32,000 nucleotides of DNA, from assembly GCA_024451685.1 (NCBI GenBank), contig JAMXCW010000002.1, positions 75,042-107,041 on the forward strand. The letters are read 5' to 3'. Shown here one piece after another: positions 1-27,961 of the stretch. Origin of the DNA: Candidatus Bathyanammoxibius amoris. Its GTDB lineage: Bacteria > Planctomycetota > Brocadiia > Brocadiales > Bathyanammoxibiaceae. The translations under genes were made by a program, and so were the position numbers. The notes below the pieces were generated by a model, which was given only the letters and a program-made list of their open reading frames with translations, did not search any database and was not told the DNA's origin. How positions within the stretch are numbered: the first letter of the stretch is position 1; each line of letters begins with the position of its first letter.

Positions 1-391
1 TGGTTAATGCCAGGGTAGTGTTATAGTCGGCGGTGGGGGAGTGAAACAGGGGAATCTGGCCCATAAGATTCATCACCCAGATGTAGATGAATAACGTCCC
101 TATAAAGGCCACAAAAGGCCCGCCGGCCTTACCCATCTGGTCCCTGACAAAGTCGTCCAGGCCTTCCACTGTCAGCTCAAGCAGGGCTTGTTGCGACCCG
201 GGTATTTTCTTGAGATTACTTGTAACCCGGTAGCAGAAAACCACCAGAAAGGTGATTGCCACCCCGGACATTACCACAGGCATCCACTGGTGGAGAGTGA
301 GGCCCAGGAGTGTCTGGTCCATGTCCAGACCCAGAAGGTCCAGGAAGGTCGGTAATTCTACAACCCCCCCCCCTTCAGCCTTGTGTGCCAC
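1..391 (-). CDS. atpB: F0F1 ATP synthase subunit a, N-terminal part (gene continues past window start)
   Basis: My reverse translation gives (GTG)AHKAEGGGVVELPTFLDLLGLDMDQTLLGLTLHQWMPVVMSGVAITFLVVFCYRVTSNLKKIPGSQQALLELTVEGLDDFVRDQMGKAGGPFVAFIGTLFIYIWVMNLMGQIPLFHSPTADYNTTLALT. This contains the subunit-a hallmark SPTADxNTTLAL. The ORF is missing from the track because it runs off the window. GTG at 391 is preceded by GGAGGAGGAGGA 7 nt upstream. ATG at 322 is an alternative start. Confidence 0.8.
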   Translation of the reverse strand, partial: MAHKAEGGGVVELPTFLDLLGLDMDQTLLGLTLHQWMPVVMSGVAITFLVVFCYRVTSNLKKIPGSQQALLELTVEGLDDFVRDQMGKAGGPFVAFIGTLFIYIWVMNLMGQIPLFHSPTADYNTTLALT

Positions 392-824
392 GCCTGTATC
401 CTCCTCCTCCTAAATCTTTATGGTCTACTCTGACAGACCCTTTTAGATAGCTTACAAGAACCATTCCTGCCAGCTTCAAAACAATCACCATCGGCACCAG
501 GCCAATTCCCGCCAGAAAGGCCTCAGGAACGATCGGTAAGTAGTTGAAGATAAGATAAAAAACCCCTACCAGAGAAATGTATTTGAGGATGCTTACCCAT
601 AGGAAGAAACGTTTGGCCCCCTCTCTGTCTCTTGAAGACAGGCGAAGTATTGTCCACCAAAGAATGCCACCTAGAACAACACTCATACCCGACCCCAGGG
701 CCAGACTGAGTGTCAAGGGAAAGGACTGCAGGGAGGTAGAGCACAAGACCATTACCACCGCTAGCACCAAAGATGTGTTAAAGACTCTCCTGGGAAAACC
801 TTCGTCCAGATGGAATTCTTTCAT
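375..824 (-). CDS. atpI: ATP synthase protein I-like small membrane protein
   Basis: 149 aa with about four hydrophobic helices. It lies directly between the AtpZ-like ORF and atpB, and has an ATGA overlap with the upstream ORF at 821-824. The call rests on position and topology, not on a recognised motif. Confidence 0.55.
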   Translation of the reverse strand: MKEFHLDEGFPRRVFNTSLVLAVVMVLCSTSLQSFPLTLSLALGSGMSVVLGGILWWTILRLSSRDREGAKRFFLWVSILKYISLVGVFYLIFNYLPIVPEAFLAGIGLVPMVIVLKLAGMVLVSYLKGSVRVDHKDLGGGGYRRGTQG

Positions 825-1048
825 CTCTTCTTCTCAGACACCAATTTCTTTATTGTCCTGTAGAACTCTAAAAAACCGCCCACAATCCCCAGCAGGAGAA
901 ATACCATCAACAGATACGGAGAAGTGCCTAGATAAGAATCTAAAAAGCTTCCTACCAGGTAACCGCCTACAACTGAACCTACCATAAAGAAACCTAGACC
1001 GGCCGTCCTGCTAAAGAGGCGAACCGAGTCTTTGCCGTTTTCAGGCAT
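821..1048 (-). CDS. AtpZ/AtpR-like (ATPase_gene1 family) two-helix membrane protein
   Basis: 75 aa. GLGFFMVGSVVGGYLVGSFLDSYLGTSPYLLMVFLLLGIVGGFLEFYRTIKK matches the pattern of the small protein encoded upstream of atpI in many atp operons (xxGxxxGxxLDxxLGTSPxxxxxxxxLGxxxG). Confidence 0.7.
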   Translation of the reverse strand: MPENGKDSVRLFSRTAGLGFFMVGSVVGGYLVGSFLDSYLGTSPYLLMVFLLLGIVGGFLEFYRTIKKLVSEKKR

Positions 1049-1151
1049 AAGCGGAAAATCCTATCACAATGACTAGCGATTTAAAAGCGAAATTTCTTCT
1101 TCTCCTCATTAGTTCTCTTCGGCTTGATCCTCACATATGAGGCTCCCGGTC

Positions 1152-1784
1152 TCAGTCCTTCGTGGAGGAAAACGCGATGATAGCCCTTACTGTGTGTCGG
1201 TTAACCCTTGATAAACAATCAATAATGTTCAAGTATAATGGAGATGCCTTGGGTATGCACACCCCGGATATGATCCTGTCTTCGTGTTCTATAGCGTACT
1301 CATCGCCAAGCTCATTAAGGCGCAGCCCTTCTTCCATCACGCACTTTACAATGACGGGATTCCCGGTCAGAAGTGCATCCCCTGCATTGGTGAGGACCTT
1401 ACGGGTATTCTCAAAGAGATATTTTAGTTCCAGGACCGCCTTGTTGGTGAAGAGGATATCCTCCTTTATCTTATTTCTAACGAGAGGCAGCATGCCCTTC
1501 AAGCCCTCTCCGACCAGTTGGAGCTGACCTGCCGCTGCAACAAGTTCCTTTAGTTGCTCTTTTCCCTCTTTGGCTTCACCAGAAATTCCGACCAGAAAAT
1601 CTGTTAGTTCCTTTGCATCCTTGTTTATCTCATCTCCAAGCTCTTCAGCGCGCTTTAGCTTTACCTCGCTGTGATGTACGAACCCATCTATCGTGACGTT
1701 CAGCATCCTCTCTGCCTTAAAACATATCGCACTAAGCCTCTGAGAAGCTTTTTCCAGTTCGCCCTCGTTTACTTCAGATTCCAT
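1152..1784 (-). CDS. PhoU-domain protein (resembles the Na/Pi-cotransporter C-terminal domain)
   Basis: 210 aa, all-helical and charged. The C-terminal part EHEDRIISGVCIPKASPLYLNIIDCLSRVNRHTVRAI resembles the PhoU-repeat signature (H..R...g.c.......ldil..leRi.dH..ni). It starts 13 nt after the hemL stop. Confidence 0.5.
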   Translation of the reverse strand: MESEVNEGELEKASQRLSAICFKAERMLNVTIDGFVHHSEVKLKRAEELGDEINKDAKELTDFLVGISGEAKEGKEQLKELVAAAGQLQLVGEGLKGMLPLVRNKIKEDILFTNKAVLELKYLFENTRKVLTNAGDALLTGNPVIVKCVMEEGLRLNELGDEYAIEHEDRIISGVCIPKASPLYLNIIDCLSRVNRHTVRAIIAFSSTKD

Positions 1785-1797
1785 GTCACAAACCCCG

Positions 1798-3114
1798 TCA
1801 TAAACCCTTCATTGCCTGGCGGCCTGCCTCGATTGTGGCCTCTATGTCCGAATCGCTGTGGGCGGCAGATACAAAAGCGGCCTCAAACTGGGAAGGTGCC
1901 AGATATACGCCCCTTTCCAGCATCCCGTTAAAGTAGCTGGCGTAACGCTTTGTGTCGGAACTCGTTGCCGTCTTGTAATCATAAACGCCATCTGCAGTGT
2001 CCGTAAAAAAGACACACAGCATGGAACCCACCCTTGTATGATACGTCTTGACCCCTGCATCACGTGCTGATTTCTCAAGCCCGTCCGCCAGCTTTTGTGA
2101 TTTCTCTTCAAGCTGCTTATATATATACCCGCCTTTATCCTTTAGTCTTTTCAGGGTGGCTATACCGGCGCTCATGGCCACCGGATTTCCAGACAGGGTT
2201 CCGGCCTGGTAAACGGGGCCAAGCGGGGCTATCTGGTCCATTATGTCCGCCCTGCCGCCATAGGCACCCACCGGCAGGCCGCCACCTATTATCTTCCCTA
2301 ACGTAGTAAGGTCCGGTTTTACGCCAAAGAGCTCCTGCGCGCCGCCCGCCGATACGCGAAAACCCGTCATAACCTCATCAAATATCAAGACGATACCGTG
2401 CCGGTTTGTAATCTCGCGCAACTTCTCCAGATAACCGGGCCTGGGAGGTACAACGCCCATGTTTCCAGCCACCGGTTCCAGGATTATACATGCGACCTCT
2501 TTGCCGCGTTCCCTGCAGAATTCACCAACCGTCTCGCTGTCGTTAAAAGGGAGAATGGCCGTGCTATCAGTATAACCCTTGGGTATGCCAGGACTTGTAG
2601 GCACCCCTAACGTGGTCGCCCCGGACCCTGCTTTGATTAACAGGCCGTCGACATGACCGTGGTAACAGCCTTCAAATTTTATGACCAAATCGCGCCCGGT
2701 AAACCCCCTGGCAAGCCGGACGGCACTCATCGTGGCCTCTGTACCGGAGTTTACCATCCTTACTTTATCAATGGACGGCACTAATTCCTTTATGAGTTCT
2801 GCCAGCCGGGTCTCCAACTCCGTAGGTGCCCCAAAGCTTGAGCCTCTTTTCACGGCGTCATTAACCTCTTTTGTTACCTGCGGGTCGGCATGGCCAAGGA
2901 TTAGAGGTCCCCAGGAGCACACATAGTCTATGTATTCATTGCCGTCTATGTCTTTTATATGGGACCCTGAACCGGATTGTATGAAAACCGGGTGGCCCCC
3001 GACAGGCCCAAAGGCCCTTACGGGGCTGTTGACACCGCCGGGTATGTGCTTTGAAGCCTCACTGAAGGCCGCATCAGACCTGCTGGTGTTCAAGTTCTTG
3101 GTTACAGGCGGCAC
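1798..3114 (-). CDS. hemL: glutamate-1-semialdehyde 2,1-aminomutase
   Basis: 438 aa. Motifs [32 protein letters not shown] and [11 protein letters not shown] (PLP lysine). GTG start with GGAGA 8 nt upstream. Confidence 0.95.
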
Positions 3115-3268
3115 GGTGGTTTCTCCATAAACAGGGCAGAAACCGCAATTTTACAGGGTGTAAGGATTTTGTCAAGAACTTTAGATTTACGGGAGAACCG
3201 CGCTCACACGACAATAAAACGAAGATTCTTCTGCGATTTAAGCGTTCAGGACGCCTTTAAGATTGCTA

Positions 3269-3298
3269 TTGACAATGCCGTTGAGGCTGTGGTATATG
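3269..3298 (+). promoter_or_regulatory. putative sigma70-type promoter for locus A (ACP operon)
   Basis: TTGACA at 3269-3274, then an 18-nt spacer to TATATG at 3293-3298 (or a 17-nt spacer to GTATAT). About 90 nt upstream of the ACP start. Sequence match only. Confidence 0.4.
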
Positions 3299-3389
3299 TT
3301 AGTTTCTTAAAGGGGCTGGGGCTTATTTTATCATTGTCTGTCGCTTTGTCCGATTTGGCATCTTACATAGCACTATAAGGAGGGGAGTT

Positions 3390-3662
3390 TTGAACGTAGA
3401 AGAGATTGAAAAGGAAGTGACGTCCATTGTTGCGGAAGTAACGGAGCTAGAGAGGGACGAGATTTGGAACAAGAGAGACGCCAATTTCTTTAAGGAACTA
3501 GAGATAGACTCCCTTTTAGCCCTGGAGATATTAGCGCTTATTGAAAAGAAGTTCAAGATTCAAATACCAGAAGAAAAGTTGGTAGATATAACATCTTTGA
3601 CCGCTACCATTAACATGACCAAAGATGTGCTGGCCGAGAGCGGAAGGCTGCAGGAAGCTTAG
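3390..3662 (+). CDS. acyl carrier protein, dedicated (amxACP-like)
   Basis: 90 aa. Phosphopantetheine attachment motif LEIDSLLALEI. TTG start with AAGGAGGGGA 4-13 nt upstream. An FF dipeptide (ANFFKELEIDSL) sits where E. coli AcpP has FV. Confidence 0.9.
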   Translation: MNVEEIEKEVTSIVAEVTELERDEIWNKRDANFFKELEIDSLLALEILALIEKKFKIQIPEEKLVDITSLTATINMTKDVLAESGRLQEA

Positions 3663-3697
3663 GCCCAAGAGGCTTGGCCAGAGGGGCCTACAAGACC

Positions 3698-4153
3698 ATG
3701 GATTTCGAGGAGGTAAAGAAGCTCGTCCCGCAAAGGTATCCCTTCCTATTCATAGATAAAGTTGTTGAATTAGAGGAGGGGAAGAGAATCGTCTGCCTCA
3801 AAAATGTTTCTGCGAACGAACCTTTCTTCGTCGGACACTTTCCGGAATACGCCATAATGCCCGGCGTCCTTACCTTGGAAGCCCTGGCCCAGGCATCCAT
3901 AATACTCTTCAAAAAAAGCTTCAAGCAGGACGACAGCCCGGACGCGGTCTTCCTGCTGGCCTCCGCAAAAGTAACCTTTGTAAAGCCTGTCTTCCCCGGG
4001 GATCAACTATACCTGGAGATAGACATAGAAAAGGTTATCTCTAATGCCGCCATTGTGAGTGGCATCGCAAGGGTCGGGGAAAACACAGTCGCCAAGACCA
4101 CTTTGACCTTCGCGACGGCCGATAAAACTTCACTTGGTAAAGGTCGGGAGTAG
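3698..4153 (+). CDS. fabZ: 3-hydroxyacyl-ACP dehydratase
   Basis: The hot-dog dehydratase signature [14 protein letters not shown]...[26 protein letters not shown] carries the catalytic His (GHFP) and Glu (LEALAQ). The track ORF begins at TTG 3674, but ATG 3698 gives the canonical N-terminus [16 protein letters not shown]. Confidence 0.9.
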
Positions 4154-4154
4154 C

Positions 4155-5378
4155 ATGAACACGCGTATAGTTATCACCGGTATAGGTGCGATAACTCCTA
4201 TCGGTTCAACCAAGGATGGCGCGTTTTGGGATGCGGTAGTTTCGGGCAAATCCGGTGTTAGCGATGTTACGTGCTTTGACACGTCCCAGCATAAGGTCCA
4301 CAAGGGCTGTGAGGTGAAGGACTTTGACTATCACGACTATACGGATAACGGCTCGGTCGGGAAAACAGGGAGGGGGTCTCAGCTTGCAGTGGCAGCCACC
4401 AAGCTGGCGCTTGAGGATTCAGGACTGAAACTGGACGAGGTAGACCCCGAGAGGATAGGTGTCTCTGTCGGGACGACCGGCGGTGAGATACAAATACTCG
4501 AAAGAATAGACCACCTCAGACACGAAAAGGAAGAGAGCCAGATAGACAGGCAGCTCTTTCTGCTGCACCCGTGCAATAATATACCCGCCAACATAGCCCG
4601 GGCATTCGGGTTTAAAGGCCCCAACACCATAATACCTACCGCATGCGCGGCGGGCAATTATGCAATCGGTTATGCCTGTGACCTCATAAAGATGGGGAGG
4701 GTGGATTTTATGTTTGCTGGCGGTTCCGACCCGTTTTCAAAGGTCGCTTTTACGGGTTTCAGCCGCCTGGCCGCGGTGGCACCGGACGTATGTCGTCCCT
4801 TCGACAAGAACCGCAAAGGGATGTTGATTGGAGAGGGCGCGGGTATGCTGCTGCTGGAGTCGCTCGACGGTGCGCGGGCAAGGGGGGCCGACATTTATGC
4901 GGAGATTATAGGCTACGGTCTGAGTTGCGATGGCTACCACATCACCATTCCCCATCCTGAGGGCCTCGGCGTAATCTCTTGCGTTAAAAAGGCCCTTCAA
5001 GACGCACGGATTAACCCTGAGGACGTGCAGTACATAAGCGCCCACGGCACGGGTACTGTCGCAAACGATAAAGCTGAAACCATTTCCATAAAAAAGGTCT
5101 TCGGTGAACATGCCGGGAACCTCATGGTGAGTTCTATAAAATCCATGATGGGTCACACTATGGGCGCCGCAAGTGCAATAGAGACGATTGCTTGTGCGCT
5201 GATAGTCAAAGAGGATAAAGTCCCGCCAACCATAAACTACGAGACGAAGGACCCTGAATGCGACCTGGACTATGTACCCAACGTTTCAAGAGAGCGCCGC
5301 GTAGACATCGCCCTTAATACCGCGTACGCCTTTGGTGGTAATAACAGTTGCCTGGTGGTCAAGAAGTTTCTTAATTAA
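4155..5378 (+). CDS. beta-ketoacyl-ACP synthase, FabF-like, catalytic triad intact
   Basis: The Cys-His-His triad is present: [48 protein letters not shown] 4155 lies 1 nt after the fabZ stop. The track start at 4134 (TTG) overlaps fabZ. Confidence 0.9.
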
Positions 5379-5459
5379 ATCACCAACAGGAAGGTTGAGT
5401 TATAATAATTCTCATCCAACCGTTTTTTCGTCTTTGACCGCTTTGAGACAAACAGACAG

Positions 5460-6689
5460 ATGGAAGAAAGAGTAGTAGTTACAGGTATAAGCATTATAAG
5501 CCCGCTCGGCGTGGGCAAGGACAGCTTCTGGGAAAACCTGCAGAACGGTGTCTCCGGCATAAGACCCGTAACCCTTTTTGAAGTGGACGGGTGCAGTTCC
5601 AAGAATGCCGGCGAAATACCGGACTTCGACCCCAGCAAGTTCCTGGGCAAGAAGGGTATCCGGCACTTTGACAGGACGTCGCTGCTGGTAACCGCAGCCT
5701 CAAGTCTCTGCGTCGAGGATGCCGCCGTCAAAGGCGTATATGAAGAGGACGACATGGGCATCGTCCTCGGTTCGACCTTTGGAAGTATCGACAGCATAAG
5801 CAATTTTGACATGGACTCTCTTAACGAGGGGCCTAATTACGTCAACCCGATGGCCTTCCCCAACACGGTCTTAAACGCTCCCGCCAGCCGTGCCTCAATA
5901 TTCTGTCAGGCCAAGGGGCTTAATTCCACCATATCCACGGGTGAATCCAGCGGCGTGGACGCTATTATGTGCGCATCCGACTTCCTCAGGCTCGGCAGGG
6001 TAAAGGCCGTGCTGACTGGCGGTGCGCACGGACTTACGCGGGAAATATTCCACTCTTCCAGCAAGGCCGGTGTGCTGTCGGGGAGCAAGAATACCGGCGG
6101 CAATGAGATTTGTGCTCCTTTCGATAAGAGACGCAACGGCATAGTTTTGGGCGAGGGTGTGGCCATGCTGCTGCTTGAATGTCTGGAGAATGCGCAGGCA
6201 AGAAATGCGAAGATATACGCCGAGATTAAGGGCTATGGCACCAGCTTTAACCCCGGCTGGGACAATAGCGGAGACATGGGCGGCGGTATGAGGGCCAATT
6301 CCCTGGCGCTCGCCAGCGCCGGACTCAAGCCGGAAGATATTTGCCTGATATACGCCAACGCCAATTCAAGCGTAAACGGTGACCGGATGGAGACCGTCGT
6401 TATAAAGGAATCCTTCGGCGACCTCGCAAAGAATATACCCGTAAGCGCGATAAAGTCCATGACCGGAGATTGCCTGGATGCATCAGGGGCGATGCAATGC
6501 GTGGCGTCCGTCATGTCAATCAACACGGGAATTATCCCTCCTACAATCAATTACAAAGAGTCAGACCCCGGCTGCGACCTGGACTACGTGCCAAACAAAA
6601 AGAGGCAGGCACAGATAGACAACGTGCTCGTGGAATCGTTCTCCTATACGGGCAACTGCTCTGCCCTGGTAATGTCCAAATACTCCTAG
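5460..6689 (+). CDS. KS-like protein lacking the whole catalytic triad (chain-length-factor-like partner)
   Basis: Full-length thiolase/KS fold (VVVTGISIISPLG...). Hand alignment to the upstream KS and to E. coli FabF motifs gives Cys->Glu (STISTGESSGVDAI), His->Asn (IYANANSSVNGD) and His->Asp (SAIKSMTGDCLDASGA). Confidence 0.85.
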   Translation: MEERVVVTGISIISPLGVGKDSFWENLQNGVSGIRPVTLFEVDGCSSKNAGEIPDFDPSKFLGKKGIRHFDRTSLLVTAASSLCVEDAAVKGVYEEDDMGIVLGSTFGSIDSISNFDMDSLNEGPNYVNPMAFPNTVLNAPASRASIFCQAKGLNSTISTGESSGVDAIMCASDFLRLGRVKAVLTGGAHGLTREIFHSSSKAGVLSGSKNTGGNEICAPFDKRRNGIVLGEGVAMLLLECLENAQARNAKIYAEIKGYGTSFNPGWDNSGDMGGGMRANSLALASAGLKPEDICLIYANANSSVNGDRMETVVIKESFGDLAKNIPVSAIKSMTGDCLDASGAMQCVASVMSINTGIIPPTINYKESDPGCDLDYVPNKKRQAQIDNVLVESFSYTGNCSALVMSKYS

Positions 6690-6691
6690 AA

Positions 6692-8122
6692 ATGGCGGAC
6701 AACGGCCTTTCTATAAAAAAGAGTGAACTCCGGAGTAAATACGACGTTATCGTAATCGGTGCGGGTATCGGGGGGCTCGTCGCGGGCGCCTTCCTCGCCA
6801 AAAGCGGAAAGAACACACTGGTAGTAGAACAGCACAACATCCCCGGCGGCTACTGCACGTCGTTTAAACGGGGCGGGTTCATCTTTGATTCCGCCGTTCA
6901 CCACATCGGGGGTTGCAGTAAGTACAGTATAGTGGGCAGGTGCCTGAAGGAATTAGGGATAGATATGGAATTCTACAGGCTCGACCCCATGGACACCCTC
7001 ACCTTCCCCTCGTTCTCCATAGACATACCGGCGGACATCGAGACCTACAAGTCCTCCCTGCAACAGAGATACCCGGCCGAGAAGGAAAACGTGTCCAGGT
7101 TCTTCAGTGAATTCATAAAACTCTACCGGGCGATAATAAACGAATCTGAGAAGAGCCCGACACTCGAAAAGTACAGGGGGCGTACTTATCAGGCCATGCT
7201 GGACGACTTCTTCGATGACACGGAGCTGAAGACCGCGCTGGCGGGGCAGTGGGGGTATCTTGGCACGCCCGCGCGCGAGCTTTCAAGCGTCGGCATGTGC
7301 CAGATGCTGGTAAACTATCTCAGAGACGGCGCCTTCTATCCCAAGGGCGGCACTCAAAACTTTGCAGACGCCTTCGCACGATGCATAAGAGACTCAGGCG
7401 GAGACCTGCTCCTGTCTTCAAAGGTGGAAGAGATACTACTCAAGGGCAACCGTGTGGCCGGGGTAAAGCTGGACGGGGGTGACAGGGAGATTGGGGCGGA
7501 GCATATCGTCTCAAATATTGACGCGGGACAGACGTTTTTTGAACTGATAAAGGAAGAGGTTGACCCCGTCTATCTTGAAAGAATGAGAGGGATGAGAGAA
7601 AGCCCTTCATATTTCCTCCTGTATCTCGGCCTTGACCCTGAGGTTGACCTGAGTAGATTCAAAAGAGGCTTTTATCACAGCCCTGACGACCAGTGGAAGT
7701 ATATATCGGCCCCGACAAACGTGGACAAATCCCTGGCCACAAAACTCCGGCAGGAGATAACCGTAGTAGCCACGCTGGATGAAAAGTACGACCAGATTGA
7801 GGACTGGAAGGGCTTGAAAGATAGGTTGACCAGGTGTACAATAAGTTACCTTGAAGATCTTGTGCCAAACCTTAACAGGCACATCGAGGTAGTGGAGGCG
7901 GCCACACCAAAGACCCTCTGGCGGTACACGCTCAACTCAAAGGGGGCCGCGTACGGGTGGGCCGTCACGCTTGAGCAGTCCGGACCGGACAGGCTTGGCA
8001 ATAAAACACCGGTAGGGGGTTTATATCTGGCCGGACATTGGACAAACCCGGGACCAGGCGTCTGCGCCGTTGTGTCCTCGGGTTGGCGCGTGGCAAACAT
8101 GATATTGAGAAACGGGAGATAA
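6692..8122 (+). CDS. FAD-dependent desaturase/oxidoreductase, phytoene desaturase (CrtI)/amine-oxidase family
   Basis: N-terminal dinucleotide fold YDVIVIGAGIGGLVAGAFLAKSGKNTLVVEQHNIPGGY. CrtI-like C-terminus GGLYLAGHWTNPGPGVCAVVSSG. ATG 6692 lies 2 nt after the preceding stop. The track start at 6470 overlaps the KS-like gene and is rejected. Confidence 0.8.
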   Translation: MADNGLSIKKSELRSKYDVIVIGAGIGGLVAGAFLAKSGKNTLVVEQHNIPGGYCTSFKRGGFIFDSAVHHIGGCSKYSIVGRCLKELGIDMEFYRLDPMDTLTFPSFSIDIPADIETYKSSLQQRYPAEKENVSRFFSEFIKLYRAIINESEKSPTLEKYRGRTYQAMLDDFFDDTELKTALAGQWGYLGTPARELSSVGMCQMLVNYLRDGAFYPKGGTQNFADAFARCIRDSGGDLLLSSKVEEILLKGNRVAGVKLDGGDREIGAEHIVSNIDAGQTFFELIKEEVDPVYLERMRGMRESPSYFLLYLGLDPEVDLSRFKRGFYHSPDDQWKYISAPTNVDKSLATKLRQEITVVATLDEKYDQIEDWKGLKDRLTRCTISYLEDLVPNLNRHIEVVEAATPKTLWRYTLNSKGAAYGWAVTLEQSGPDRLGNKTPVGGLYLAGHWTNPGPGVCAVVSSGWRVANMILRNGR

Positions 8123-8127
8123 AGGTT

Positions 8128-9573
8128 ATGAAGAAGATAATGCTGGTAAACCCTCATCCTCCAGGCCGTCACGGTGAGGAGAGCATAAGCGTGATAGTCC
8201 AGATGCCCCTGAATCTGGCCTACATCGCCGCCCTCACGCCGGGCGACGATTGGGAGTTCGATGTAGTTGACGAAAACCTCGAGCTTGCAATGGATGAGAA
8301 TGGAGAGGACATAACCTTTGACCCGCCGGATATAGTCGCGCTTACCGCGCTCACCTATCAGGCTCCCAGGGCATACCAGATAGCCCGGGCCGCCAAGAAA
8401 CACGGCTGTACCACAATAATGGGCGGCATCCACGCCTCCGTGTGTGCGGAAGAGACCCTGCAGTACGTGGACACGGTCGTAACCGGAGAGGCGGAGAACG
8501 TCTGGCCGCAGGTGATAAAGGACTTTGAGAACGGAAAGTTGCAGAGACGCTACGACGGCGGACTCCCCAACCTCTCAGTACTCAAAAATATATATCCCGA
8601 TAGAGAACTTCTGAAGAAAAAGTACGGCTACAAGTTCTCTTCTATAATAACTACTAAAGGCTGTCCCAACCGCTGCGATTTCTGCAGCGTGCCCACCTTC
8701 CAGGGCCAGAAGTTCCGGGAGAGACCGTACGAAGACGTGCTCGACGAGATGGCGGCTACGGACTATAAGGGGCTGATGTTTGCTGAGGACAACTTCTACG
8801 GCCACAGCGACGCCTCCGCGCGGCGCGCCAAACACCTCTTCCAGGGCATGATTGACAGGGGCCTGAAGAAGGACTGGCTCGGCTTTACCGCCCTCAACAT
8901 CTCTCATGACGCCGAGGCCCTCGACCTGATGGCAAAGTCCGGCAACTTCGGTTTTCTCGTCGGCATAGAAAGCACCAACGAAGAGGTGTTGAAGAAAATG
9001 GGTAAGCGGGTGAATTTGAGACTTGGGACCACTAATTATAAAGAATGTATAAGGAAGATACATGATGCGGGTCTCCTCGTCTGGGCCTCGGTGGTATTCG
9101 GCGCCGACGGCGATGGCAAGGATTCGTTCAAGAAGATGGTGGATTTCGTACACGACAGCAAGGTGGACATACTGACCTACGGCCTTGACTGCCCGTTCCC
9201 CAAGACGCCGCTCTTCTACAGGCTCGATTCAGAGAAACGGCTCTTCCGGAGAAATCTGCCGGAGGACTGGGTATATTACGAGACCGCCCATATGGTCCAC
9301 AGGTTCGTTGACATGACCCTGGACGATTTCGTGGACGGCATGCAGTACGTCTACGACCACGTATACGCGGGTGACAACGTCCGCAAGAGGTTCAGGACAA
9401 CCATACAGGAGACCGGCAACCCCCGCAACTCCATGTTCGCCCTCAGGGTGGGTCAGGACTGGGACCAAGTCTTTTTGCAGGTTTTGGACAACCTGCACGA
9501 ACTCCAGGAATCCGGCGATTATTATAAAGACACCTACACCACGCAGGAAAAGACCATCTCCATCCCCGCGTAG
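8128..9573 (+). CDS. B12-binding-domain radical SAM enzyme (paralog 1)
   Basis: Radical SAM cluster motif TTKGCPNRCDFCSVP (CxxxCxxC). N-terminal Rossmann-like B12-binding-type domain (IMLVNPHP...DIVALTALTYQAPRAYQIARAAKKHGCTTIMGGIHAS). ATG 8128 with GGGAGA 9 nt upstream, 5 nt after the desaturase stop. Confidence 0.85.
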   Translation: MKKIMLVNPHPPGRHGEESISVIVQMPLNLAYIAALTPGDDWEFDVVDENLELAMDENGEDITFDPPDIVALTALTYQAPRAYQIARAAKKHGCTTIMGGIHASVCAEETLQYVDTVVTGEAENVWPQVIKDFENGKLQRRYDGGLPNLSVLKNIYPDRELLKKKYGYKFSSIITTKGCPNRCDFCSVPTFQGQKFRERPYEDVLDEMAATDYKGLMFAEDNFYGHSDASARRAKHLFQGMIDRGLKKDWLGFTALNISHDAEALDLMAKSGNFGFLVGIESTNEEVLKKMGKRVNLRLGTTNYKECIRKIHDAGLLVWASVVFGADGDGKDSFKKMVDFVHDSKVDILTYGLDCPFPKTPLFYRLDSEKRLFRRNLPEDWVYYETAHMVHRFVDMTLDDFVDGMQYVYDHVYAGDNVRKRFRTTIQETGNPRNSMFALRVGQDWDQVFLQVLDNLHELQESGDYYKDTYTTQEKTISIPA

Positions 9574-9607
9574 TATCGCTGCATATTATCAGACCAACAA
9601 ATAATGT

Positions 9608-9639
9608 AGGGGCACGGCAATGCCGCGCCCCTTTGTTTT
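9608..9639 (+). terminator. rho-independent terminator of locus A
   Basis: AGGGGCACGGC-AAT-GCCGCGCCCCT forms a stem of 6+4 bp with one internal mismatch. It is followed by TTTGTTTT and lies 35 nt after the radical SAM stop. Confidence 0.7.
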
Positions 9640-9663
9640 ATCTATTCCTCAACAATTATGCGT

Positions 9664-10051
9664 ACGAGATTCTTCGCTGCCCCTTCGCTACGCTCAGGGC
9701 TTCGGCTCAGAATGACAACTCGTGGCGTGGTAGACAACGAGGTTTACCTCGTTGATCAACGACCATATCGAAGACTCGCCATGTTGTTGGGCGAGAAGGC
9801 CGTTGTTTACCAACTACGTTACATTACGCCTGAAAAATCTTTTTATGTAGCGTGGTAGCTCGCTGCCACGTTCTACGTTGGAGCAAGCTCCAACGCTACA
9901 TCGATTGTATATGGCCCCATAAATGGGGCAACTACAGTTGAAAGCCGCAGGGCTAAAGCCCTGCGGCACCCATAGATTAGGTAGGGGGCGGGGTGACCCC
10001 GACCCTACAGTGAATTATAACGTGGAGGGCAGCCATAAGGCCTGCCCCTAC
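9664..10051. repeat. array of short GC-rich hairpins, many flanked by GTAG/CTAC (REP/BIME-like)
   Basis: Stem-loops read directly: 9735-9754 (CAACGAGG/CCTCGTTG), 9851-9870 (CGTGG/CCACG), 9876-9895 (CGTTGGAGC/GCTCCAACG), 9914-9929 (GCCCCAT/ATGGGGC), 9944-9967 (GCCGCAGGGC/GCCCTGCGGC), 9981-10008 (GTAGGGGGCGGGG..CCCCGACCCTAC) and 10027-10048 (GGGCAG/CTGCCC). Confidence 0.6.
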
Positions 10052-10054
10052 AAA

Positions 10055-10768
10055 CTATTTGGGCAGGGGAGCGCCGCACCAGGCGCAGAATGTCCACGTG
10101 GCGGAGACCTCCTCCCCACACTTCGCACATGGAGGGGCATTCACCATCGCGTCGAACGGGGTGTGCCACGTGAAGACCGCCTTCTCGTACGGGCCGTCGG
10201 CATTAAGCACCAGGGTCAGCTTGGATTTCTTGTGTGTGTCAATTACAGGCTCGCCCTTTTTATCCTTGTTCGGGAATATCAGGACGTGCATGTTGGCGCC
10301 GCCGGCGTCGCCCTCCGAGGCCAGTATAGTCTTCATTGCCGCAACGGTCGCCGCAACCATGGGGGGCGGGTCGTCTACGGGCCGGATTTTAGAGCCGTCC
10401 GGCGCCAGCAGCACCGCTCTTTTCCGGACTTCGCTTTCACCCGCATACATAGAGGAGCCGTCGGGCTGCATGATGCTGCTCTGGATGACCATGGTGATGT
10501 ACGGCTTAAGGAACCCCATGTCCTGTTCTATGACGTCCCTTGGCTGACGGGTATCGGTAAGACTTGCCTCCACGTAGAAATCGAACGGCATCCACATGGC
10601 AAGCTGTGTAACGTCACCCAGTATCTCTACTTTCAGTATCTCGGTAACAAAGCTGCCGAGGTCGGCATTTGGCTTCGCGCCGGCTCCCTGCTGGGCAGCC
10701 AGGGTCTGGGGGAACGCGGCGACACAGAACAGAACCGCGGCCATAAAAAGAATCCTTGGGGTCTTCAC
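10055..10768 (-). CDS. exported hypothetical protein with C-terminal CxxC...CxxC zinc-ribbon-like tail
   Basis: 237 aa. Signal peptide MKTPRILFMAAVLFCVAAFPQTLAAQQ. GTG start with AAGGAGAG 5 nt upstream. C-terminus CAKCGEEVSATWTFCAWCG. No family recognised. Confidence 0.6.
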   Translation of the reverse strand: MKTPRILFMAAVLFCVAAFPQTLAAQQGAGAKPNADLGSFVTEILKVEILGDVTQLAMWMPFDFYVEASLTDTRQPRDVIEQDMGFLKPYITMVIQSSIMQPDGSSMYAGESEVRKRAVLLAPDGSKIRPVDDPPPMVAATVAAMKTILASEGDAGGANMHVLIFPNKDKKGEPVIDTHKKSKLTLVLNADGPYEKAVFTWHTPFDAMVNAPPCAKCGEEVSATWTFCAWCGAPLPK

Positions 10769-10829
10769 GGTGCTCTCCTTTCAAAAACGTATTACCTTCA
10801 TGTCTGCCAGCGCGGCCGGACGGTGAAGG

Positions 10830-11174
10830 TTATTCTCCCGTTGGGAATATCATCGTATCGAGGTCTTTTACCAGTTGATACATCCTGCGGGCGTCTTGCA
10901 GGGCCTGTTCCTGGTTTACAAGCGGTATTATCTCTATCTTTGTAAACAGGGGGAACAGCGGCAGCTTTGTCACAATCGCCTCTATCTCCGCGTGGTCGTC
11001 CGCGTCAAAGATGGCCGCCGCGCCGCGGCGCCCGGCCAGTTTGCCGCCTGCCAGGACTTTCCCCCTCTTCTTCATCCTCTCGTAGAACTCCCATTCCTTT
11101 ATCAAGAGTTGAAAGAAATCCCTGACCGGCATCTGGTTAATCTTTTCTATCTCTACCTTTACTAGAAATAGCAT
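10830..11174 (-). CDS. muconolactone delta-isomerase-fold (MIase family) protein
   Basis: 114 aa. MLFLVKVEIE...IFDADDHAEIEAIVTKLPLFPLFTKIEIIPL parallels CatC-type muconolactone isomerases as I remember them (MLFxVxM...N..YSIFDV.S.EELH.LL..LPLFPYM.IEV.PL). GAGGTG RBS 7 nt upstream. Confidence 0.6.
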   Translation of the reverse strand: MLFLVKVEIEKINQMPVRDFFQLLIKEWEFYERMKKRGKVLAGGKLAGRRGAAAIFDADDHAEIEAIVTKLPLFPLFTKIEIIPLVNQEQALQDARRMYQLVKDLDTMIFPTGE

Positions 11175-11300
11175 GGGAGTTCACCTCGCATTTAATGGAC
11201 GTTGTAGAGACAGAACCCGCCGCCCGCCACAAATATGGCGTATTTAGAACCTGCGTCGAGGACTGTCCCTTCGCATTATCCGGCATCGGCCCCGACAGTG

Positions 11301-12044
11301 TTACATGGCCATGCCGCCGTCTACGGTAATTACTTGACCCGTGATATAACTGGCCTCGTCCGAGGCCAGGAAAGCCACCACGCGGGCCACCTCTTCGGTC
11401 TCGCCGACGCGGCCCAGAGGCACCAGCTTCAACATCTCGTCCAGGTATTTCTGCTCTATCGCTTTAACCATATCCGTCTTAATGAAACCCGGCGCCACCG
11501 CGTTTACCCGCACCCCGCGCCTTGCCACCTCCTTGGCCAGGGCCTTGGTAAAACCAACTATCCCGGCCTTTGAGGAGGAATAGTTGGTCTGTCCCGCCAT
11601 GCCGACAAGCCCGCTGACGGAGCTTATGTTTATTATCGAGCCGCTCCGCTGCTTCATCATGGGCAACACGGCGGCCTTGGTGCAGTTGAACACGCCGTTC
11701 AGGTTGGTATCTATCACGGCCCTCCAGTCCTCTTCCGACATCATCATCAATATCTTGTCCCTGGTTATACCGGCGTTGTTTACCAGGATGTCTACCTTTC
11801 CGAGTTCCTTTATGGCATTGCTAATCATCTCTTTTGACCGGGCAAAGTCCGCGACGTCGCTCTGCACGGAAAACGCCTTTACGCCCAGCTTGCTTATCTC
11901 GCCCTCAAGCTCCTTCGCCTTCTCCACGTTCTTCGCGTAGCTGAAGGCCACGTCCGCGCCGTTTCCGGCAAGCTCAAGGGCTATCGCCCTCCCGATACCC
12001 CTGGTACCACCCGTGACAATAGCCGTCTTCCCTTTTAATGACAT
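11301..12044 (-). CDS. fabG: 3-oxoacyl-ACP reductase
   Basis: 247 aa classical SDR. TGGTRGIGRAIA, NNAGI, the Ser...YSSSK catalytic motif and the C-terminal ITGQVITVDGGMAM typical of FabG. Confidence 0.9.
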   Translation of the reverse strand: MSLKGKTAIVTGGTRGIGRAIALELAGNGADVAFSYAKNVEKAKELEGEISKLGVKAFSVQSDVADFARSKEMISNAIKELGKVDILVNNAGITRDKILMMMSEEDWRAVIDTNLNGVFNCTKAAVLPMMKQRSGSIINISSVSGLVGMAGQTNYSSSKAGIVGFTKALAKEVARRGVRVNAVAPGFIKTDMVKAIEQKYLDEMLKLVPLGRVGETEEVARVVAFLASDEASYITGQVITVDGGMAM

Positions 12045-12080
12045 GTTACCTTCTCCACGTTTTATAATGAAACAAGCGAC

Positions 12081-12128: not shown

Positions 12129-14135
12129 TTATACAGTAAGTCCTATCTTAAAGCCTTCATGGATCGCCTCCATCGCGGTCCTTACCTGCACGCAGTCGCC
12201 GATAGTATATATCTCAGGCACGAGACCGTTAAGGTGTTTATGGAGCGAGTCGTCGGATATGTACCCGGTAGCAATTATCACCGTTTCCGCGGGTATAAAA
12301 GTCTCCCGGCCGTCCTTTTCATACAACACGCCGCTCTCTGGCTCCTCTTTGACTTCCTTTACCTTTACGGTCGTGACGGCCTTTATGCCTGCGCCCTCCA
12401 TCTCCCTTTCCATCACCCAGCGTGTGGATATCCCGAAACCGCCGGCGACTCTCCTCTTCATCTCGAGAATGGTGACGTTCCTGTGGCCCCTTGAGGATTT
12501 TTCCAATGCGGTCGGCAGGTCTATTATATCATTCTTTAGCAAGAACATCGCCACATCCGGTTTCATACTGCCCAGCTTGGCCACGTAGAGGGCCGTCTCA
12601 CTGCCTACCGTCCCGCCGCCTATTATAACAACCTCACGGCCAACCGGCACCCTCCCGTCCAGTACGTCCTTCGCCAGCACGATGTTATTCCCGTTTATCC
12701 CCGGAATCGGCGGGATGGACGGCGTTGAACCAGTTGACAGTATCAGCACGTTCGGTTTTTCCTTCTTGATTATATCCGGGTTTGCCTCAACGCCCAGGAC
12801 GACCTTCACCTTTTCCTTCTTTATCTGTCTTTCCAGATATTTTATAACGTTTACAAACTCCTCGCGGCCAGGGGGCTTGTAGGCATAGTGCAACTGACCC
12901 CCAAGGATTTTTTCTTTCTCATACAGTGTTACGTCATGGCCTCTCAGCGCGGCCACCCGGGCCGCCTCCATTCCTCCGGGACCGCCCCCTACAACAAGGA
13001 TCTTCCTCTTCTTTGCCGCCGGTGTTATGGTATATTCTTTTTCCCTCCCTGCCCTGGGATTGTACAGGCAGGTGACGGCCCTCATGTTCAAGAGTTCATC
13101 AAAGCAGCCCTGGTTGCATGCTATACACGTCCTTATGTCCTCAAGCCTGCCTTCCTTATATTTATTGGGCAGCTCTGGGTCCGCTATGAGCGGTCTGCCG
13201 ATGGATACCAGGTCTGTCTGCCCGTCCCTGAGCAGCTCTTCCGCAACGGTAAGGTCATTTATCCTGACAGCCGCTATTACGGGTATGTCCACGTTTTCTT
13301 TGATGGAGGTTGCCAGAACCACGTAAGCGGTTCTGGGGATTACCATCAGCATTACGGGTACCTTGCTTTCGTGCCACCCCGGCGACACGTGGAAGGCGTC
13401 CACGCCGAGTCCGGCAAGTCTCTGGGCGATTTGTATATTGTCCTTAATCTTCAGACCGCCCTCCATCAGCTCATCCCCGGAGAGTCTAAAGATTACGGGA
13501 AAATCCTCCCCAGCGGTCTCTTTGACGGCCTCTATGGTTTCAACGGCAAAGCGCAGCCTTTTCTCCGGGCTGCCGCCGTACTCGTCGTTTCTTTTATTGC
13601 TTATTGGTGAGAGGAACTGGTTGATGAGGTATCCCATGCCGCCGTGAATCTCTACGGCATCGAAGCCCGCGTCTTTGGCCCTTTTTGCGGCCAGGGCGTA
13701 GTTTTGTATTACCTGTTTTATCTCCGGGATGCTTAAGGCCCTGGACGTGTCTCTGGCCAGTCGTGAGGGCACGCTCGATGCCGATACGGGCTGCATCTTT
13801 GAGAACAGGCTTGAGGCATAACGCCCGCCATGGAGTATCTGGGCAGCGGCCTTTGTGCCGTGACGGTGCATAGCCCCGGTGAATCTGGCGAGTGAGGGGA
13901 TGTAGCGGTCGTCGTCCAGCCCGAGGATGCTCTTCCACGCCTTGCCGTTCTGTTCCGGATAGCACCCGCCGACAACGATGAGCCCCACACCTCCGTCGGC
14001 CCTCTCCGTATAGAAATCAACAAAACGGTCATTGACAAAGCCGCCGGTAGTGAAGCCAAGGTCCATTGCCGTCATCACGAGACGGTTTTCCAGCTGCAAC
14101 GGGCCTATATTTATTGTGTTAAACAGGCTGACCAT
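12129..14135 (-). CDS. FadH-type 2,4-dienoyl-thioester reductase-like flavoprotein (OYE FMN barrel + 4Fe-4S + FAD/NAD(P)H domains)
   Basis: 668 aa. N-terminal OYE-like barrel (GFDAVEIHGGMGYLINQFLSP). Cys motif CIACNQGCFDELLNMRAVTC (Cx2Cx3Cx11C, as in E. coli FadH). C-terminal Rossmann folds ILVVGGGPGGMEAA and VVIIGGGTVGSETA. Confidence 0.85.
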   Translation of the reverse strand: MVSLFNTINIGPLQLENRLVMTAMDLGFTTGGFVNDRFVDFYTERADGGVGLIVVGGCYPEQNGKAWKSILGLDDDRYIPSLARFTGAMHRHGTKAAAQILHGGRYASSLFSKMQPVSASSVPSRLARDTSRALSIPEIKQVIQNYALAAKRAKDAGFDAVEIHGGMGYLINQFLSPISNKRNDEYGGSPEKRLRFAVETIEAVKETAGEDFPVIFRLSGDELMEGGLKIKDNIQIAQRLAGLGVDAFHVSPGWHESKVPVMLMVIPRTAYVVLATSIKENVDIPVIAAVRINDLTVAEELLRDGQTDLVSIGRPLIADPELPNKYKEGRLEDIRTCIACNQGCFDELLNMRAVTCLYNPRAGREKEYTITPAAKKRKILVVGGGPGGMEAARVAALRGHDVTLYEKEKILGGQLHYAYKPPGREEFVNVIKYLERQIKKEKVKVVLGVEANPDIIKKEKPNVLILSTGSTPSIPPIPGINGNNIVLAKDVLDGRVPVGREVVIIGGGTVGSETALYVAKLGSMKPDVAMFLLKNDIIDLPTALEKSSRGHRNVTILEMKRRVAGGFGISTRWVMEREMEGAGIKAVTTVKVKEVKEEPESGVLYEKDGRETFIPAETVIIATGYISDDSLHKHLNGLVPEIYTIGDCVQVRTAMEAIHEGFKIGLTV

Positions 14136-14215: not shown

Positions 14216-15457
14216 TTACATATCACTTTTTTCCACTACGAGGCTGGTGCAGTTTCCATTCAGGTCGAGAGAGTTGACTATTGCCACCTTTATGTCCTGT
14301 TTAAGCTCGTCCCCCAGTACGAAATTCAGCTCGCACTCAGGGTCCGGCACCTTGTAGTTCCTCATCGGAGGGATGGTCGATTTTTCCATGGCCAGCAGGC
14401 AAAAGGCCATTTGCATCGCCCCTGATGCGCCGTAACACTCACCGGTCTGAGACTTTATAGAACTTACCGGTACGTCTCTCAAGCCGTCTCCCAGCAGCGC
14501 TTTAACGGCCCTGGCCTCTATGAGGTCCGTCTGCTTTGAAGAATTACCGTTTGCGCAGATAAGCCCCAAGGAATCCTTTGATTGTCCGGCCTGTTCAAGA
14601 GCCTGCTCCATGGTATTTTTCACTCTCTCTGTCTTTTCTTCCAGGCTGAACCTCCTGGCTCCCATGTAAGCTAGTCCGTGACCGGTGAGCTCCGCATATA
14701 CGCGGGCTCCCCGCCTGCGTGCATATTCCATGTCCTCTATGACAAACACGTAACTGCCCTCACCGAGGATGAAGCCGTTCCTGCGCTTATCAAACGGGGC
14801 GCTTATCTCTGGTTCAGAGTCCTGCGAACCAGCCAGAAGTTTTTGCATAAGAAAGATGATGTAACTGTCGAGCGAGATTTGTTCCACCCCGCCGGCAATG
14901 AGCACATCCACCCTGTTTGTCTGTATCAAGCTAAAGGCGTCGCCGATAGCGTCGGCGCTGGACGTGAATCCTGAGGTAATTGTCCTTGAAGGACCGGTGA
15001 GTTTAAAAAATACTGAAGCAAAGTTTGTAGAGGAATTCAGTGCCACGTCATAGCTGTCCATGGGAAGGAGCTTTTCAGGCCCGCGTTTAAGGATCTCATA
15101 CGTATAATCCGTTGTCTGTGGGTAATTGCCGAGGGCTGAACCTATTACAACGCCCGTGTCATCAGGACAGTGATTGCCGTTCTGGAAGAGTTTAGCGTCT
15201 TCGAGGGCAAGTTTCGTTGCAGACGCAAGAAATTTGGTACCCTTTGTCAGATATTTAAGGCCCTTGTCACCGAGATATTCAGAGGGATTCAGGCCCTTTA
15301 CTTCCGCAGCCAGTTTACAAGGATACCCGGAGACGTCAAGGGACGTGATCGGGGCGATACCGGAATGGCCTCCGGCAAGATTCTTCCAGAATTCCTCATG
15401 CCCAAACCCCAGCGGAGAGATTATACCGATGCCAGTTATTACGGTCCTTTTCTTCAT
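14216..15457 (-). CDS. KS-like protein lacking the whole catalytic triad (second chain-length-factor-like partner)
   Basis: 413 aa KS fold. Cys->Phe (RTITSGFTSSADAIG), His->Asn (ICANGNSSKQTD), His->Glu (SSIKSQTGECYGASGA). Its ATG overlaps the upstream KS stop (ATGA at 15454-15457). Confidence 0.85.
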   Translation of the reverse strand: MKKRTVITGIGIISPLGFGHEEFWKNLAGGHSGIAPITSLDVSGYPCKLAAEVKGLNPSEYLGDKGLKYLTKGTKFLASATKLALEDAKLFQNGNHCPDDTGVVIGSALGNYPQTTDYTYEILKRGPEKLLPMDSYDVALNSSTNFASVFFKLTGPSRTITSGFTSSADAIGDAFSLIQTNRVDVLIAGGVEQISLDSYIIFLMQKLLAGSQDSEPEISAPFDKRRNGFILGEGSYVFVIEDMEYARRRGARVYAELTGHGLAYMGARRFSLEEKTERVKNTMEQALEQAGQSKDSLGLICANGNSSKQTDLIEARAVKALLGDGLRDVPVSSIKSQTGECYGASGAMQMAFCLLAMEKSTIPPMRNYKVPDPECELNFVLGDELKQDIKVAIVNSLDLNGNCTSLVVEKSDM

Positions 15458-16659
15458 ACCCTACCAAAAACAACGCTGGCATTATTACCGCCAAAGGCAA
15501 ACGAGTTATTCAAGGCGAATCTAACCTCTTTGTTTCTTGCCTCATTAGGCACGCAATCCAGGTCGCATTCCGGGTCCTTTGTCTCGTAGTTTATCGTCGG
15601 GGGGAGTTCTCCAAACTTTATGGCCAGGCAGCACACGGCAGACTCAATGGCGCTTGCCGCTCCCATGGTGTGGCCGATCATTGACTTTACCGAGCTGCAT
15701 GGAATCTGCGGGGTTCTCTCTTTAAAGACCGTCTTGACTGCAAGGGTTTCCATTTTGTCATTCAGCGGCGTGCCTGTGCCGTGCGCGCTTATATAATCTA
15801 CGTCCTCATACGAAAGCTTGGCGCATCCCAGTGCCGCCTCCATTGCCCTGATAGCGCCTTCCCCTTTAGGATGGGGAGCGGTCATGTGAAAACCGTCGCT
15901 GCTGAGACCGTAGCCCTTTACTTCAGCATATGTGTTCGCGCCGCGTTTTGTTGCATGCTCCAGAGTCTCAAGTATCAGCATCCCCGCGCCGGCCCCCACG
16001 ACCAGACCCTGTCTGTTTTTATCAAACGGCTGGCATTTCTCCGGCGCCAGGGCCTTCAGGTTGTGGAAGTGCGTAAATTCAGTTTGCGGTACTATGTCGC
16101 TTCCGCCGACTACCATTGCGTTAACCTTTCCTTCCTGCAGCATGTCAAAGGCCCAGCACAGGGCATGGTTTCCGGAGGAGCAGGCGTTAATCAGAATGAT
16201 ATTGGGACCTTCTACGTGAAAATCTTCTGCCAGCTGAGTCGATAAGGTCGCCGGGGGATAACGCAGGACCACGTCCAGACTAAACCCGGAGGCCTTGTCA
16301 CGGGGGTTGTCCCTTAGCTTATGCTCAAAGGCGGAGAGTTCTCCGGCAAGCGTTCCTATGGACATACCGACTTTATCTATTTCCAGGCCCTTGTAGTCAA
16401 ATATGCCGCTATCTTGAAGCGCCTCCCTGGTAGCTACGTAAAGACAATCGTAAACAGTATATCCGTTCTTGGATGGTGGGGTACCGTTGGAGTTCAGACT
16501 TTTTAACTCACAGGCACGGTGAACCTTGTATCTGGAGGTGTCAAAGGTGGTAATTTCCGAGACACCATCCCGGCCATTAAGCATTGCTTCCCAGGATTTT
16601 TTTCTGTCCGAACCAATGGCCGTTACCAAGCCGAGGCCTGTCACAACTACTCTGGGCAT
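15454..16659 (-). CDS. beta-ketoacyl-ACP synthase, FabF-like, catalytic triad intact (second copy)
   Basis: 401 aa. IILINACSSGNHAL (Cys), [15 protein letters not shown] (His), [16 protein letters not shown] (His). Starts 16 nt after the radical SAM stop. Confidence 0.9.
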   Translation of the reverse strand: MPRVVVTGLGLVTAIGSDRKKSWEAMLNGRDGVSEITTFDTSRYKVHRACELKSLNSNGTPPSKNGYTVYDCLYVATREALQDSGIFDYKGLEIDKVGMSIGTLAGELSAFEHKLRDNPRDKASGFSLDVVLRYPPATLSTQLAEDFHVEGPNIILINACSSGNHALCWAFDMLQEGKVNAMVVGGSDIVPQTEFTHFHNLKALAPEKCQPFDKNRQGLVVGAGAGMLILETLEHATKRGANTYAEVKGYGLSSDGFHMTAPHPKGEGAIRAMEAALGCAKLSYEDVDYISAHGTGTPLNDKMETLAVKTVFKERTPQIPCSSVKSMIGHTMGAASAIESAVCCLAIKFGELPPTINYETKDPECDLDCVPNEARNKEVRFALNNSFAFGGNNASVVFGRV

Positions 16660-18249: not shown

Positions 18250-18615
18250 TCAATACGCGCCAGTCACCAATAATACCTGCCCTATGGCGTGGTCTTTTGT
18301 GTGGGTTATTGATACGTCCCATGAGCCGACACCCTTTTCCTCGGCGAGTTCCTTCGCCCTCCCATAAAGTTTAAGGTAAGGACGTCCCGAGGAATCATTG
18401 AGCAACTCAATATCTGTCCACTTCATCCCCGTACCCAGGGCCTTTACCACCGCCTCTTTTACGGCAAACCTGGCGGCCAGGTGTTCAAACTTATTCCTCT
18501 TAGAGAGGCTGTACTCTACCTCCCTGGGGGTGTATATGCGGTCAATAAAGGATTCGTAACGGGTAAAAAGGTCTTTAATTCTTCCAACTTCCACCAGGTC
18601 GATGCCTATGTACAC
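18250..18615 (-). CDS. acpS: holo-ACP synthase (4'-phosphopantetheinyl transferase)
   Basis: 121 aa. IGIDLVEVGRI, RFAVKEAVVKALG and WDVSITHTKDHA are typical AcpS blocks. GTG start with GGGGAG 8 nt upstream. Confidence 0.9.
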   Translation of the reverse strand: MYIGIDLVEVGRIKDLFTRYESFIDRIYTPREVEYSLSKRNKFEHLAARFAVKEAVVKALGTGMKWTDIELLNDSSGRPYLKLYGRAKELAEEKGVGSWDVSITHTKDHAIGQVLLVTGAY

Positions 18616-20128: not shown

Positions 20129-20165
20129 AGTAAACCATCCTCCATACAATTAGAGGGGAAGAAAG

Positions 20166-27960: not shown

Positions 27961-27961
27961 C

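Follow-up and report, generated by a model that had tools for sequence, protein, structure and literature searches.

Do two adjacent ketosynthase (KS) genes of an anammox bacterium, only one of which encodes a complete catalytic triad, specify two FabF-type enzymes or the two halves of a single one? The question is raised by the genes here called KS1 and KS2, which lie in a 32,000-nt stretch (the window) of Candidatus Bathyanammoxibius amoris contig JAMXCW010000002.1. Ladderane lipid biosynthesis is unsolved, and the KS heterodimer is one of the few parts of the pathway with experimental support. We consider it very probable that KS1 and KS2 are the Bathyanammoxibius-type amxFabF2/amxFabFmut, most likely an obligate heterodimer in which KS1 alone would be catalytic and KS2 would serve as a dead scaffold that shapes the tunnel. 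For the window, what results is mainly a secure annotation: the locus is Cluster I, which is associated with ladderanes, in an anammox family that branches deeply. Its comparative additions are modest, namely a Glu-type dead subunit, a selective constraint that has moved to the tunnel helix, and two KS/dead-KS loci that are neighbours here and fused in one distant lineage.

The two genes are as follows.
4155-5378, + strand: KS1, putative active ketosynthase subunit and amxFabF2 ortholog (ATG at 4155, 407 aa; 680 bits to 9S5H chain B)
5460-6689, + strand: KS2, triad-less partner subunit and amxFabFmut ortholog (ATG at 5460, 409 aa; 527 bits to 9S5H chain C)

Both proteins contain the N- and C-terminal Pfam ketoacyl-synt domains at full length. 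The KS1 triad is Cys164/His297/His334 (codons 4644-4646, 5043-5045 and 5154-5156), and the same aligned columns in KS2 hold Glu162/Asn300/Asp337 (codons 5943-5945, 6357-6359 and 6468-6470), with Lys332 retained; E. coli FabF C164/H304/H341, numbered with the initiator Met, provided the reference columns for both. Other mapped residues of KS1 are the gate Phe393, Phe202 and Met336. Three agreeing alignments set the catalytic columns: a HMMER alignment against B. subtilis FabF (4LS5/4LS6), a MAFFT alignment with E. coli FabF (NC_000913) and 120 homologs, and a four-way alignment of all ketosynthases of the window (KS1-KS4). A preliminary description of this DNA had read a retained Cys-His-His from the KS1 motifs TACAAG, SAHGTGT and MGHTMG, and Glu, Asn and Asp from STGESSG, YANANSS and MTGDCLD in a KS2 of full ketosynthase length. 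All of these motifs are present, the three alignments bear out the columns, KS2 has 409 aa with both Pfam domains complete, and the alignment with E. coli FabF that had been proposed as a check brings out no Cys/His/His in KS2. Among the best 120 homolog clusters of KS2, none (0/120) carries C-H-H, the types being T-C-E, V-C-E, V-N-E, E-N-D and E-N-E. Given this absence, and given that the structure of a 62%-identical ortholog has a mutated triad, the loss in KS2 is neither chance nor an alignment artefact.

The surrounding genes place the pair in a known operon.
3390-3662, + strand: ortholog of amxACP, the anammox-specific acyl carrier protein (ACP) (Pfam PP-binding; TTG start, with AAGGAGGGG just before it)
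3701-4153, + strand: amxFabZ ortholog (3-hydroxyacyl-ACP dehydratase; Pfam FabA)
5379-5459, + strand: KS1-KS2 spacer of 81 nt with the conserved motif TCATCCAACCGTT, from alignment with the related loci L002, L003 and L005
6692-8122, + strand: phytoene-desaturase-like (PDH) FAD oxidoreductase of the kuste3607 type (Pfam Amino_oxidase, NAD_binding_8)
8128-9573, + strand: B12-binding radical SAM (rSAM) enzyme of the kuste3608 type (Pfam B12-binding, Radical_SAM)

The gene order ACP-FabZ-KS-KS-PDH-B12 rSAM (3390-9573) is identical to kuste3603-3608 and the same in L002, L003 and L005, while the position of the phytoene-desaturase-like gene and the synteny of the B12 radical SAM gene are also kept in a further locus, L006. 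The ACP scores 138 bits against PDB 7AUF and 124 against 9S5I chain E, compared with about 31 against ordinary ACPs, and the FabZ scores 213 bits against amxFabZ (PDB 8AYI/7QV0), compared with about 105 against canonical FabZ. Identity to B. fulgida amxFabF2 and amxFabFmut (PDB 9S5H/9S5I) is 72% for KS1 and 62% for KS2, respectively, and the best matches are subunit-specific: KS1 reaches 680 bits with 9S5H_B versus 242 with 9S5H_C, and KS2 527 bits with 9S5H_C versus 230 with 9S5H_B. Because of these identities, the identical six-gene synteny and the match of ACP and FabZ to the solved amxACP and amxFabZ, we regard the assignment of the locus as an ortholog of anammox "Cluster I" (kuste3603-3608) as solid on sequence and synteny grounds. 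The spacer motif TCATCCAACCGTT is kept in four related loci, and the other operon junctions are given as 1-12 nt; a search for RNA structure in the 81-nt spacer returned no significant fold (z = -0.18). KS2 is identical to a database protein from a 230-kb contig, and fragments clustered with that protein carry the annotation Candidatus Bathyanammoxibius, a genus whose family is described as branching before Brocadiaceae and Scalinduaceae (PMC12758564).

The losses in orthologs of KS2 have been noted before. Rattray et al. 2009 (PMC2649909) tabulated active-site losses in Kuste3606 (Val/Asn/Glu) and Kuste2805 (Phe/Asn/Glu) and suggested for these proteins a possible part in recruiting a ladderane unit made beforehand, which would be coupled to a short acyl chain. 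A May 2026 preprint (bioRxiv 10.64898/2026.05.19.726425) covers the systems of Brocadia fulgida, Kuenenia stuttgartiensis (KustE3605/3606) and Scalindua brodae and names the complex amxFabFhet. It reports that amxFabF2 and amxFabFmut are each inactive and non-crosslinking alone, that they co-purify upon co-expression, as shown with the K. stuttgartiensis and B. fulgida proteins, and that the pair decarboxylates malonyl-amxACP and forms acetoacetyl-amxACP. The heterodimer was crystallised both by itself and with amxACP (PDB 9S5H/9S5I, entries that we tied to the preprint by organism, chain composition and residue numbering), and the structures contain only one catalytic tunnel, with Phe135/Thr138/Val139 of the dead subunit lining it. 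In crosslinking, C8 and C6 probes are favoured over C16, and mutants of the dead-subunit tunnel shift this preference. The authors label the complex a KS/chain-length-factor (CLF)-like heterodimer, regard the ligation proposal as refuted, and read the short-probe preference of the heterodimer, as that of amxFabZ, as pointing to a short linear lipid part. The preliminary description had independently arrived at the same conclusion for the window, namely that an active KS and its triad-less paralog form a KS/CLF-like heterodimer rather than two FabFs; the point is already known, having been demonstrated experimentally for the orthologs in the work cited above.

We propose that KS1 and KS2 would be co-expressed from the ACP-FabZ-KS-KS-PDH-rSAM operon and assemble as an obligate heterodimer. 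Cys164 of KS1 would take the acyl chain from amxACP, His297 and His334 would decarboxylate malonyl-amxACP and form the oxyanion hole, and Phe393 would gate the tunnel. The helix-loop-helix of KS2 (Phe133/Thr136/Val137) would close and shape the acyl tunnel of KS1 across the dimer interface, and would thereby stabilise the active subunit and bias the accepted chain length. KS1/KS2 keep the residues that serve catalysis, gate and tunnel in the crystallised pair: KS1 Phe393 corresponds to the published gate Phe394, and by residue mapping KS2 Phe133/Thr136/Val137 equal Phe135/Thr138/Val139 of B. fulgida. KS1 and KS2 of the window would be expected to behave like their orthologs.

Several points weigh against this mechanism. 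The experimental proof concerns the ortholog proteins, the window pair being known by its sequence, and Glu162 and Asp337 differ from the Val or Thr and the Glu, respectively, of the characterised proteins. Whereas the helix-loop-helix of the known pair is electrostatically asymmetric, negative on FabF2 and positive on FabFmut (10.64898/2026.05.19.726425), the corresponding net charges are -3, +1 in KS1 and -4, +1 in KS2, a linear count and not a surface potential; this count is similar for both subunits in the B. fulgida pair too and hence non-discriminating. According to the preprint, the orthologs were not observed to elongate past acetoacetyl-ACP in vitro, and the evidence for their chain-length preference comes from a crosslinking reaction that is non-physiological. 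As for the in vivo product of the pair, the published data may hint at a short C6-C8 segment.

Comparison of KS2 with its relatives locates the constraint on the protein. Against three related metagenome-assembled genome (MAG) loci, the ratio of nonsynonymous to synonymous substitution rates (dN/dS) is 0.09-0.11 for KS2 and 0.07-0.09 for KS1, and the dead KS2 is therefore under purifying selection about as strong as that on KS1. One element of KS2 stands out.
5856-5900, + strand: tunnel-lining helix of KS2, residues 133-147, FPNTVLNAPASRASI, which holds Phe133/Thr136/Val137
No other block of the family is as conserved (entropy of 0.06 bits versus a mean of 0.84 across 44 diverse members), with Phe133/Thr136/Val137 invariant in 44/44, and the former Cys column is among the most variable in the same members (Val/Glu/Thr, 1.56 bits). 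A conserved tunnel helix combined with a variable former Cys site is the pattern expected of a tunnel-forming, non-catalytic partner, and as a modest comparative point the selective constraint has shifted away from the former active site and onto the tunnel helix. In the AlphaFold2 (AF2) monomer model of KS2 (of moderate confidence, pLDDT 72.6, from a shallow alignment), confidence is lowest at residues 108-139, the equivalents of which are reported in the preprint as disordered unless the heterodimer forms. The low model confidence would fit, if weakly, an ordering that depends on the heterodimer.

Distant relatives of KS2 were sought exhaustively among 1.84 billion representatives, and the best 150 matches were classified. 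They include 78 stand-alone triad-less KS, 41 KS-deadKS fusions and 14 single C-H-H proteins. The fusions are uncharacterised proteins of about 800 aa with an N-terminal C-H-H KS and a C-terminal triad-less KS, and as natural joinings of the two subunit types they provide a Rosetta-stone argument for a 1:1 complex. For one fusion the annotated source is a Candidatus Helarchaeota archaeon MAG. The dead-triad residues are very diverse in the distant relatives: Glu occupies the second His position in 78/119 and is second commonest at the Cys position (18/119), where Gln also occurs. Closer to the window, about 25 homolog clusters with Glu at the Cys position (E-N-D or E-N-E) make up a Bathyanammoxibius-type clade, which a rough neighbour-joining (NJ) tree places as sister to the Val/Thr clade. 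In the preprint the Cys position of the orthologs is Val, or Thr in Scalindua, so that a Glu-type variant of the dead subunit would be slightly new.

A catalytic role for KS2 itself, in which a Glu162/Asn300/Asp337/Lys332 pocket would decarboxylate malonyl-ACP for priming or couple a ladderane unit to a short acyl chain, seems unlikely to us. A decarboxylative priming role has been proposed for the Gln of polyketide synthase (PKS) CLFs. The replacements in KS2 are polar or acidic and conserved throughout its 25-cluster clade, Lys332 is invariant, and the frequency of Glu and the presence of Gln at the Cys position of distant triad-less relatives can be counted on the same side. Furthermore, priming by the ortholog heterodimer (decarboxylation, then acetoacetyl-ACP) is not attributed to one subunit by mutagenesis in the available preprint text (10.64898/2026.05.19.726425). 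However, the orthologs have Val, Thr or Glu in the Cys column and Asn or Cys in the first His column, a variation that is unexpected for a catalytic residue, and given the variable Cys column we do not see Glu162 as catalytic. The preprint also describes amxFabFmut alone as without activity or crosslinking, its tunnel as not reaching the sole triad, and docking of amxACP at its entrance as not predicted, and its authors call the ligation proposal refuted.

Two separate homodimers, with KS1 as an ordinary dedicated FabF and KS2 as a homodimeric acyl-ACP binding or regulatory protein, are in our view very improbable, even though Scalindua brodae amxFabFmut expressed alone crystallised as a homodimer (10.64898/2026.05.19.726425) and the 81-nt spacer between KS1 and KS2 is not a case of translational coupling. 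Neither ortholog alone was active or crosslinked, and the two co-eluted upon co-expression, as the same work states; moreover, the 41 natural fusions point to a 1:1 complex, and conservation of KS2 peaks in the very helix that reaches into the partner. The loss of all three catalytic residues could also be taken to indicate that KS2 is a decaying duplicate without function, to which we give a negligible probability: the protein has its full length and intact domains, its dN/dS is 0.09-0.11, and more than 120 homolog clusters, from all anammox families, retain it in conserved synteny. The pseudogene reading of KS2 was rejected on these selection and conservation data.

If KS1 and KS2 form a heterodimer with one active subunit, to which known systems is it akin? 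The likeness to amxFabF2/amxFabFmut is that of orthologs: the same operon order, a first KS that keeps its triad and a second that has lost it, the gate Phe and the tunnel Phe/Thr/Val. In contrast to the published Val/Thr, the window KS2 has Glu at the Cys position, and it has Asp rather than Glu at the second His; its host is a deep-branching Bathyanammoxibius-type anammox bacterium, and its Cluster I adjoins a kuste2802-2805-type cluster instead of lying apart from it in the genome. In actinorhodin ActI-ORF1/ORF2 (PDB 1TQY), too, the gene of an active KS adjoins that of a full-length triad-less paralog, and the KS/CLF heterodimer has, like the anammox pair, one active site and a tunnel shaped by the dead subunit. 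However, the actinorhodin CLF carries Gln where the window KS2 carries Glu, and its product is an aromatic polyketide, whereas the window pathway includes a FabZ and is fatty-acid-like. The likeness to type II PKS KS/CLF systems drawn in the preliminary description holds in function and fails in kinship, since KS2 is nearest FabF by sequence and fold. It scores 264 bits against B. subtilis FabF versus 127 against the act CLF, B. subtilis FabF (4LS5) is the best match of its AF2 model in the fold ranking, and no CLF chain was found among its 50 best structural matches. We therefore place KS2 as FabF-derived, CLF-like in function only and outside the type II PKS CLF clade, an exclusion that rests on score and fold rankings and on the rough NJ tree, in which E. 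coli FabF is the sole outgroup.

Housekeeping FabF (E. coli b1095, B. subtilis 4LS5) shares the thiolase fold, a similar length and both Pfam domains with the pair, and the catalytic apparatus of KS1 is complete. Housekeeping FabF, being a homodimer, has two active sites. The TIGR03150 fabF cut-off of 493.75 bits is reached by none of the four window ketosynthases (KS1 444.8, KS2 331.2, the other two 401 and 320).

The highly reducing type II PKS pair Iga11/Iga12 of ishigamide biosynthesis (PDB 6KXD-F) and the aryl-polyene pairs resemble KS1/KS2 in that a KS and a CLF-like partner act together with a dehydratase on chains bound to ACP. Iga11 ranks with the best PDB matches of KS1 (319 bits) and is named in the preprint as the homolog structurally nearest to amxFabF2; Iga12 is absent from the 60 best PDB sequence matches of KS2. 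Unlike the Iga11/Iga12 polyene system, the ortholog chain-length data point to C6-C8 saturated probes (10.64898/2026.05.19.726425). A 2026 review (PMC13459092) considers the polycyclisation route to ladderanes unsupported by experiment. The polyenoyl-ACP intermediate suggested in the preliminary description is thus an unsupported conjecture for the pair, one kept open by the similarity of KS1 to the polyene-forming Iga11.

The window contains a second pair of the same general kind, in a lipid operon on the opposite strand.
18615-10830, - strand: second lipid operon, which contains KS3/KS4
18250-18615, - strand: AcpS
16676-18157, - strand: B12 rSAM, before KS3
15454-16659, - strand: KS3, with Cys160/His293/His330
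14216-15457, - strand: KS4, triad-less, with Phe164/Asn303/Glu340, replacements as in Kuste2805
12129-14135, - strand: Old Yellow Enzyme (OYE)/FAD reductase, after KS4
11301-12044, - strand: short-chain dehydrogenase/reductase (SDR)
10830-11174, - strand: muconolactone-isomerase-like protein

The KS3/KS4 pair (14216-16659, - strand) is of the kuste2804/2805 type (F-N-E), and its genes overlap by ATGA. This pair is not treated in the 2026 preprint (10.64898/2026.05.19.726425); by analogy, KS3/KS4 should also form a heterodimer. At the tunnel positions KS4 has S135/V138/A139, residues smaller than F133/T136/V137 of KS2. In the rough NJ tree KS1 groups with KS3, and KS4 is sister to the whole amxFabFmut family, which suggests, as a lead only, that an ancestral KS/dead-KS pair may have been duplicated as a unit.

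The two KS/dead-KS loci are convergent neighbours in the window and far apart in Kuenenia. L006 (positions 1-12079 of a Logan SRR32147499 contig; 48-61% identity), from a more distant lineage, unites the orthologs of the two window loci in a single operon, in the order ACP-FabZ-KS-deadKS(E-G-E)-PDH-rSAM-rSAM-rSAM-KS-deadKS, and Gln occupies the Cys position of its last dead KS. The fusion of both loci in this operon suggests that the two work together. It is conceivable, though we think it doubtful, that the Cluster I pair and the KS3/KS4 pair are two stages of one assembly line, each with its own tunnel, as in a stepwise-elongation model of ladderane synthesis. If so, one pair would make a short linear segment and the other would extend a radical-SAM-modified, ring-bearing chain. 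In a variant of this model, the acidic Glu/Asp pocket of the Bathyanammoxibius-type KS2 may be ancestral and retain a binding role. The neighbourhood and fusion of the two loci could steer reconstitution towards expressing both together.

The rest of the window has a different character. An open reading frame of 340 aa (9923-10945, + strand) with no Pfam match lies between the two convergent lipid operons, and the anammox catabolic genes hzs and hdh were not found within the 32,000 nt. The regions 18779-25062 and 25811-31458 look like housekeeping DNA, with genes for a MatE transporter, a pentapeptide-repeat protein, an amino-acid kinase and MlaE/MlaF/MlaD, together with a class-III aminotransferase, ornithine carbamoyltransferase, RNase PH, a Ham1-family protein and LepA.

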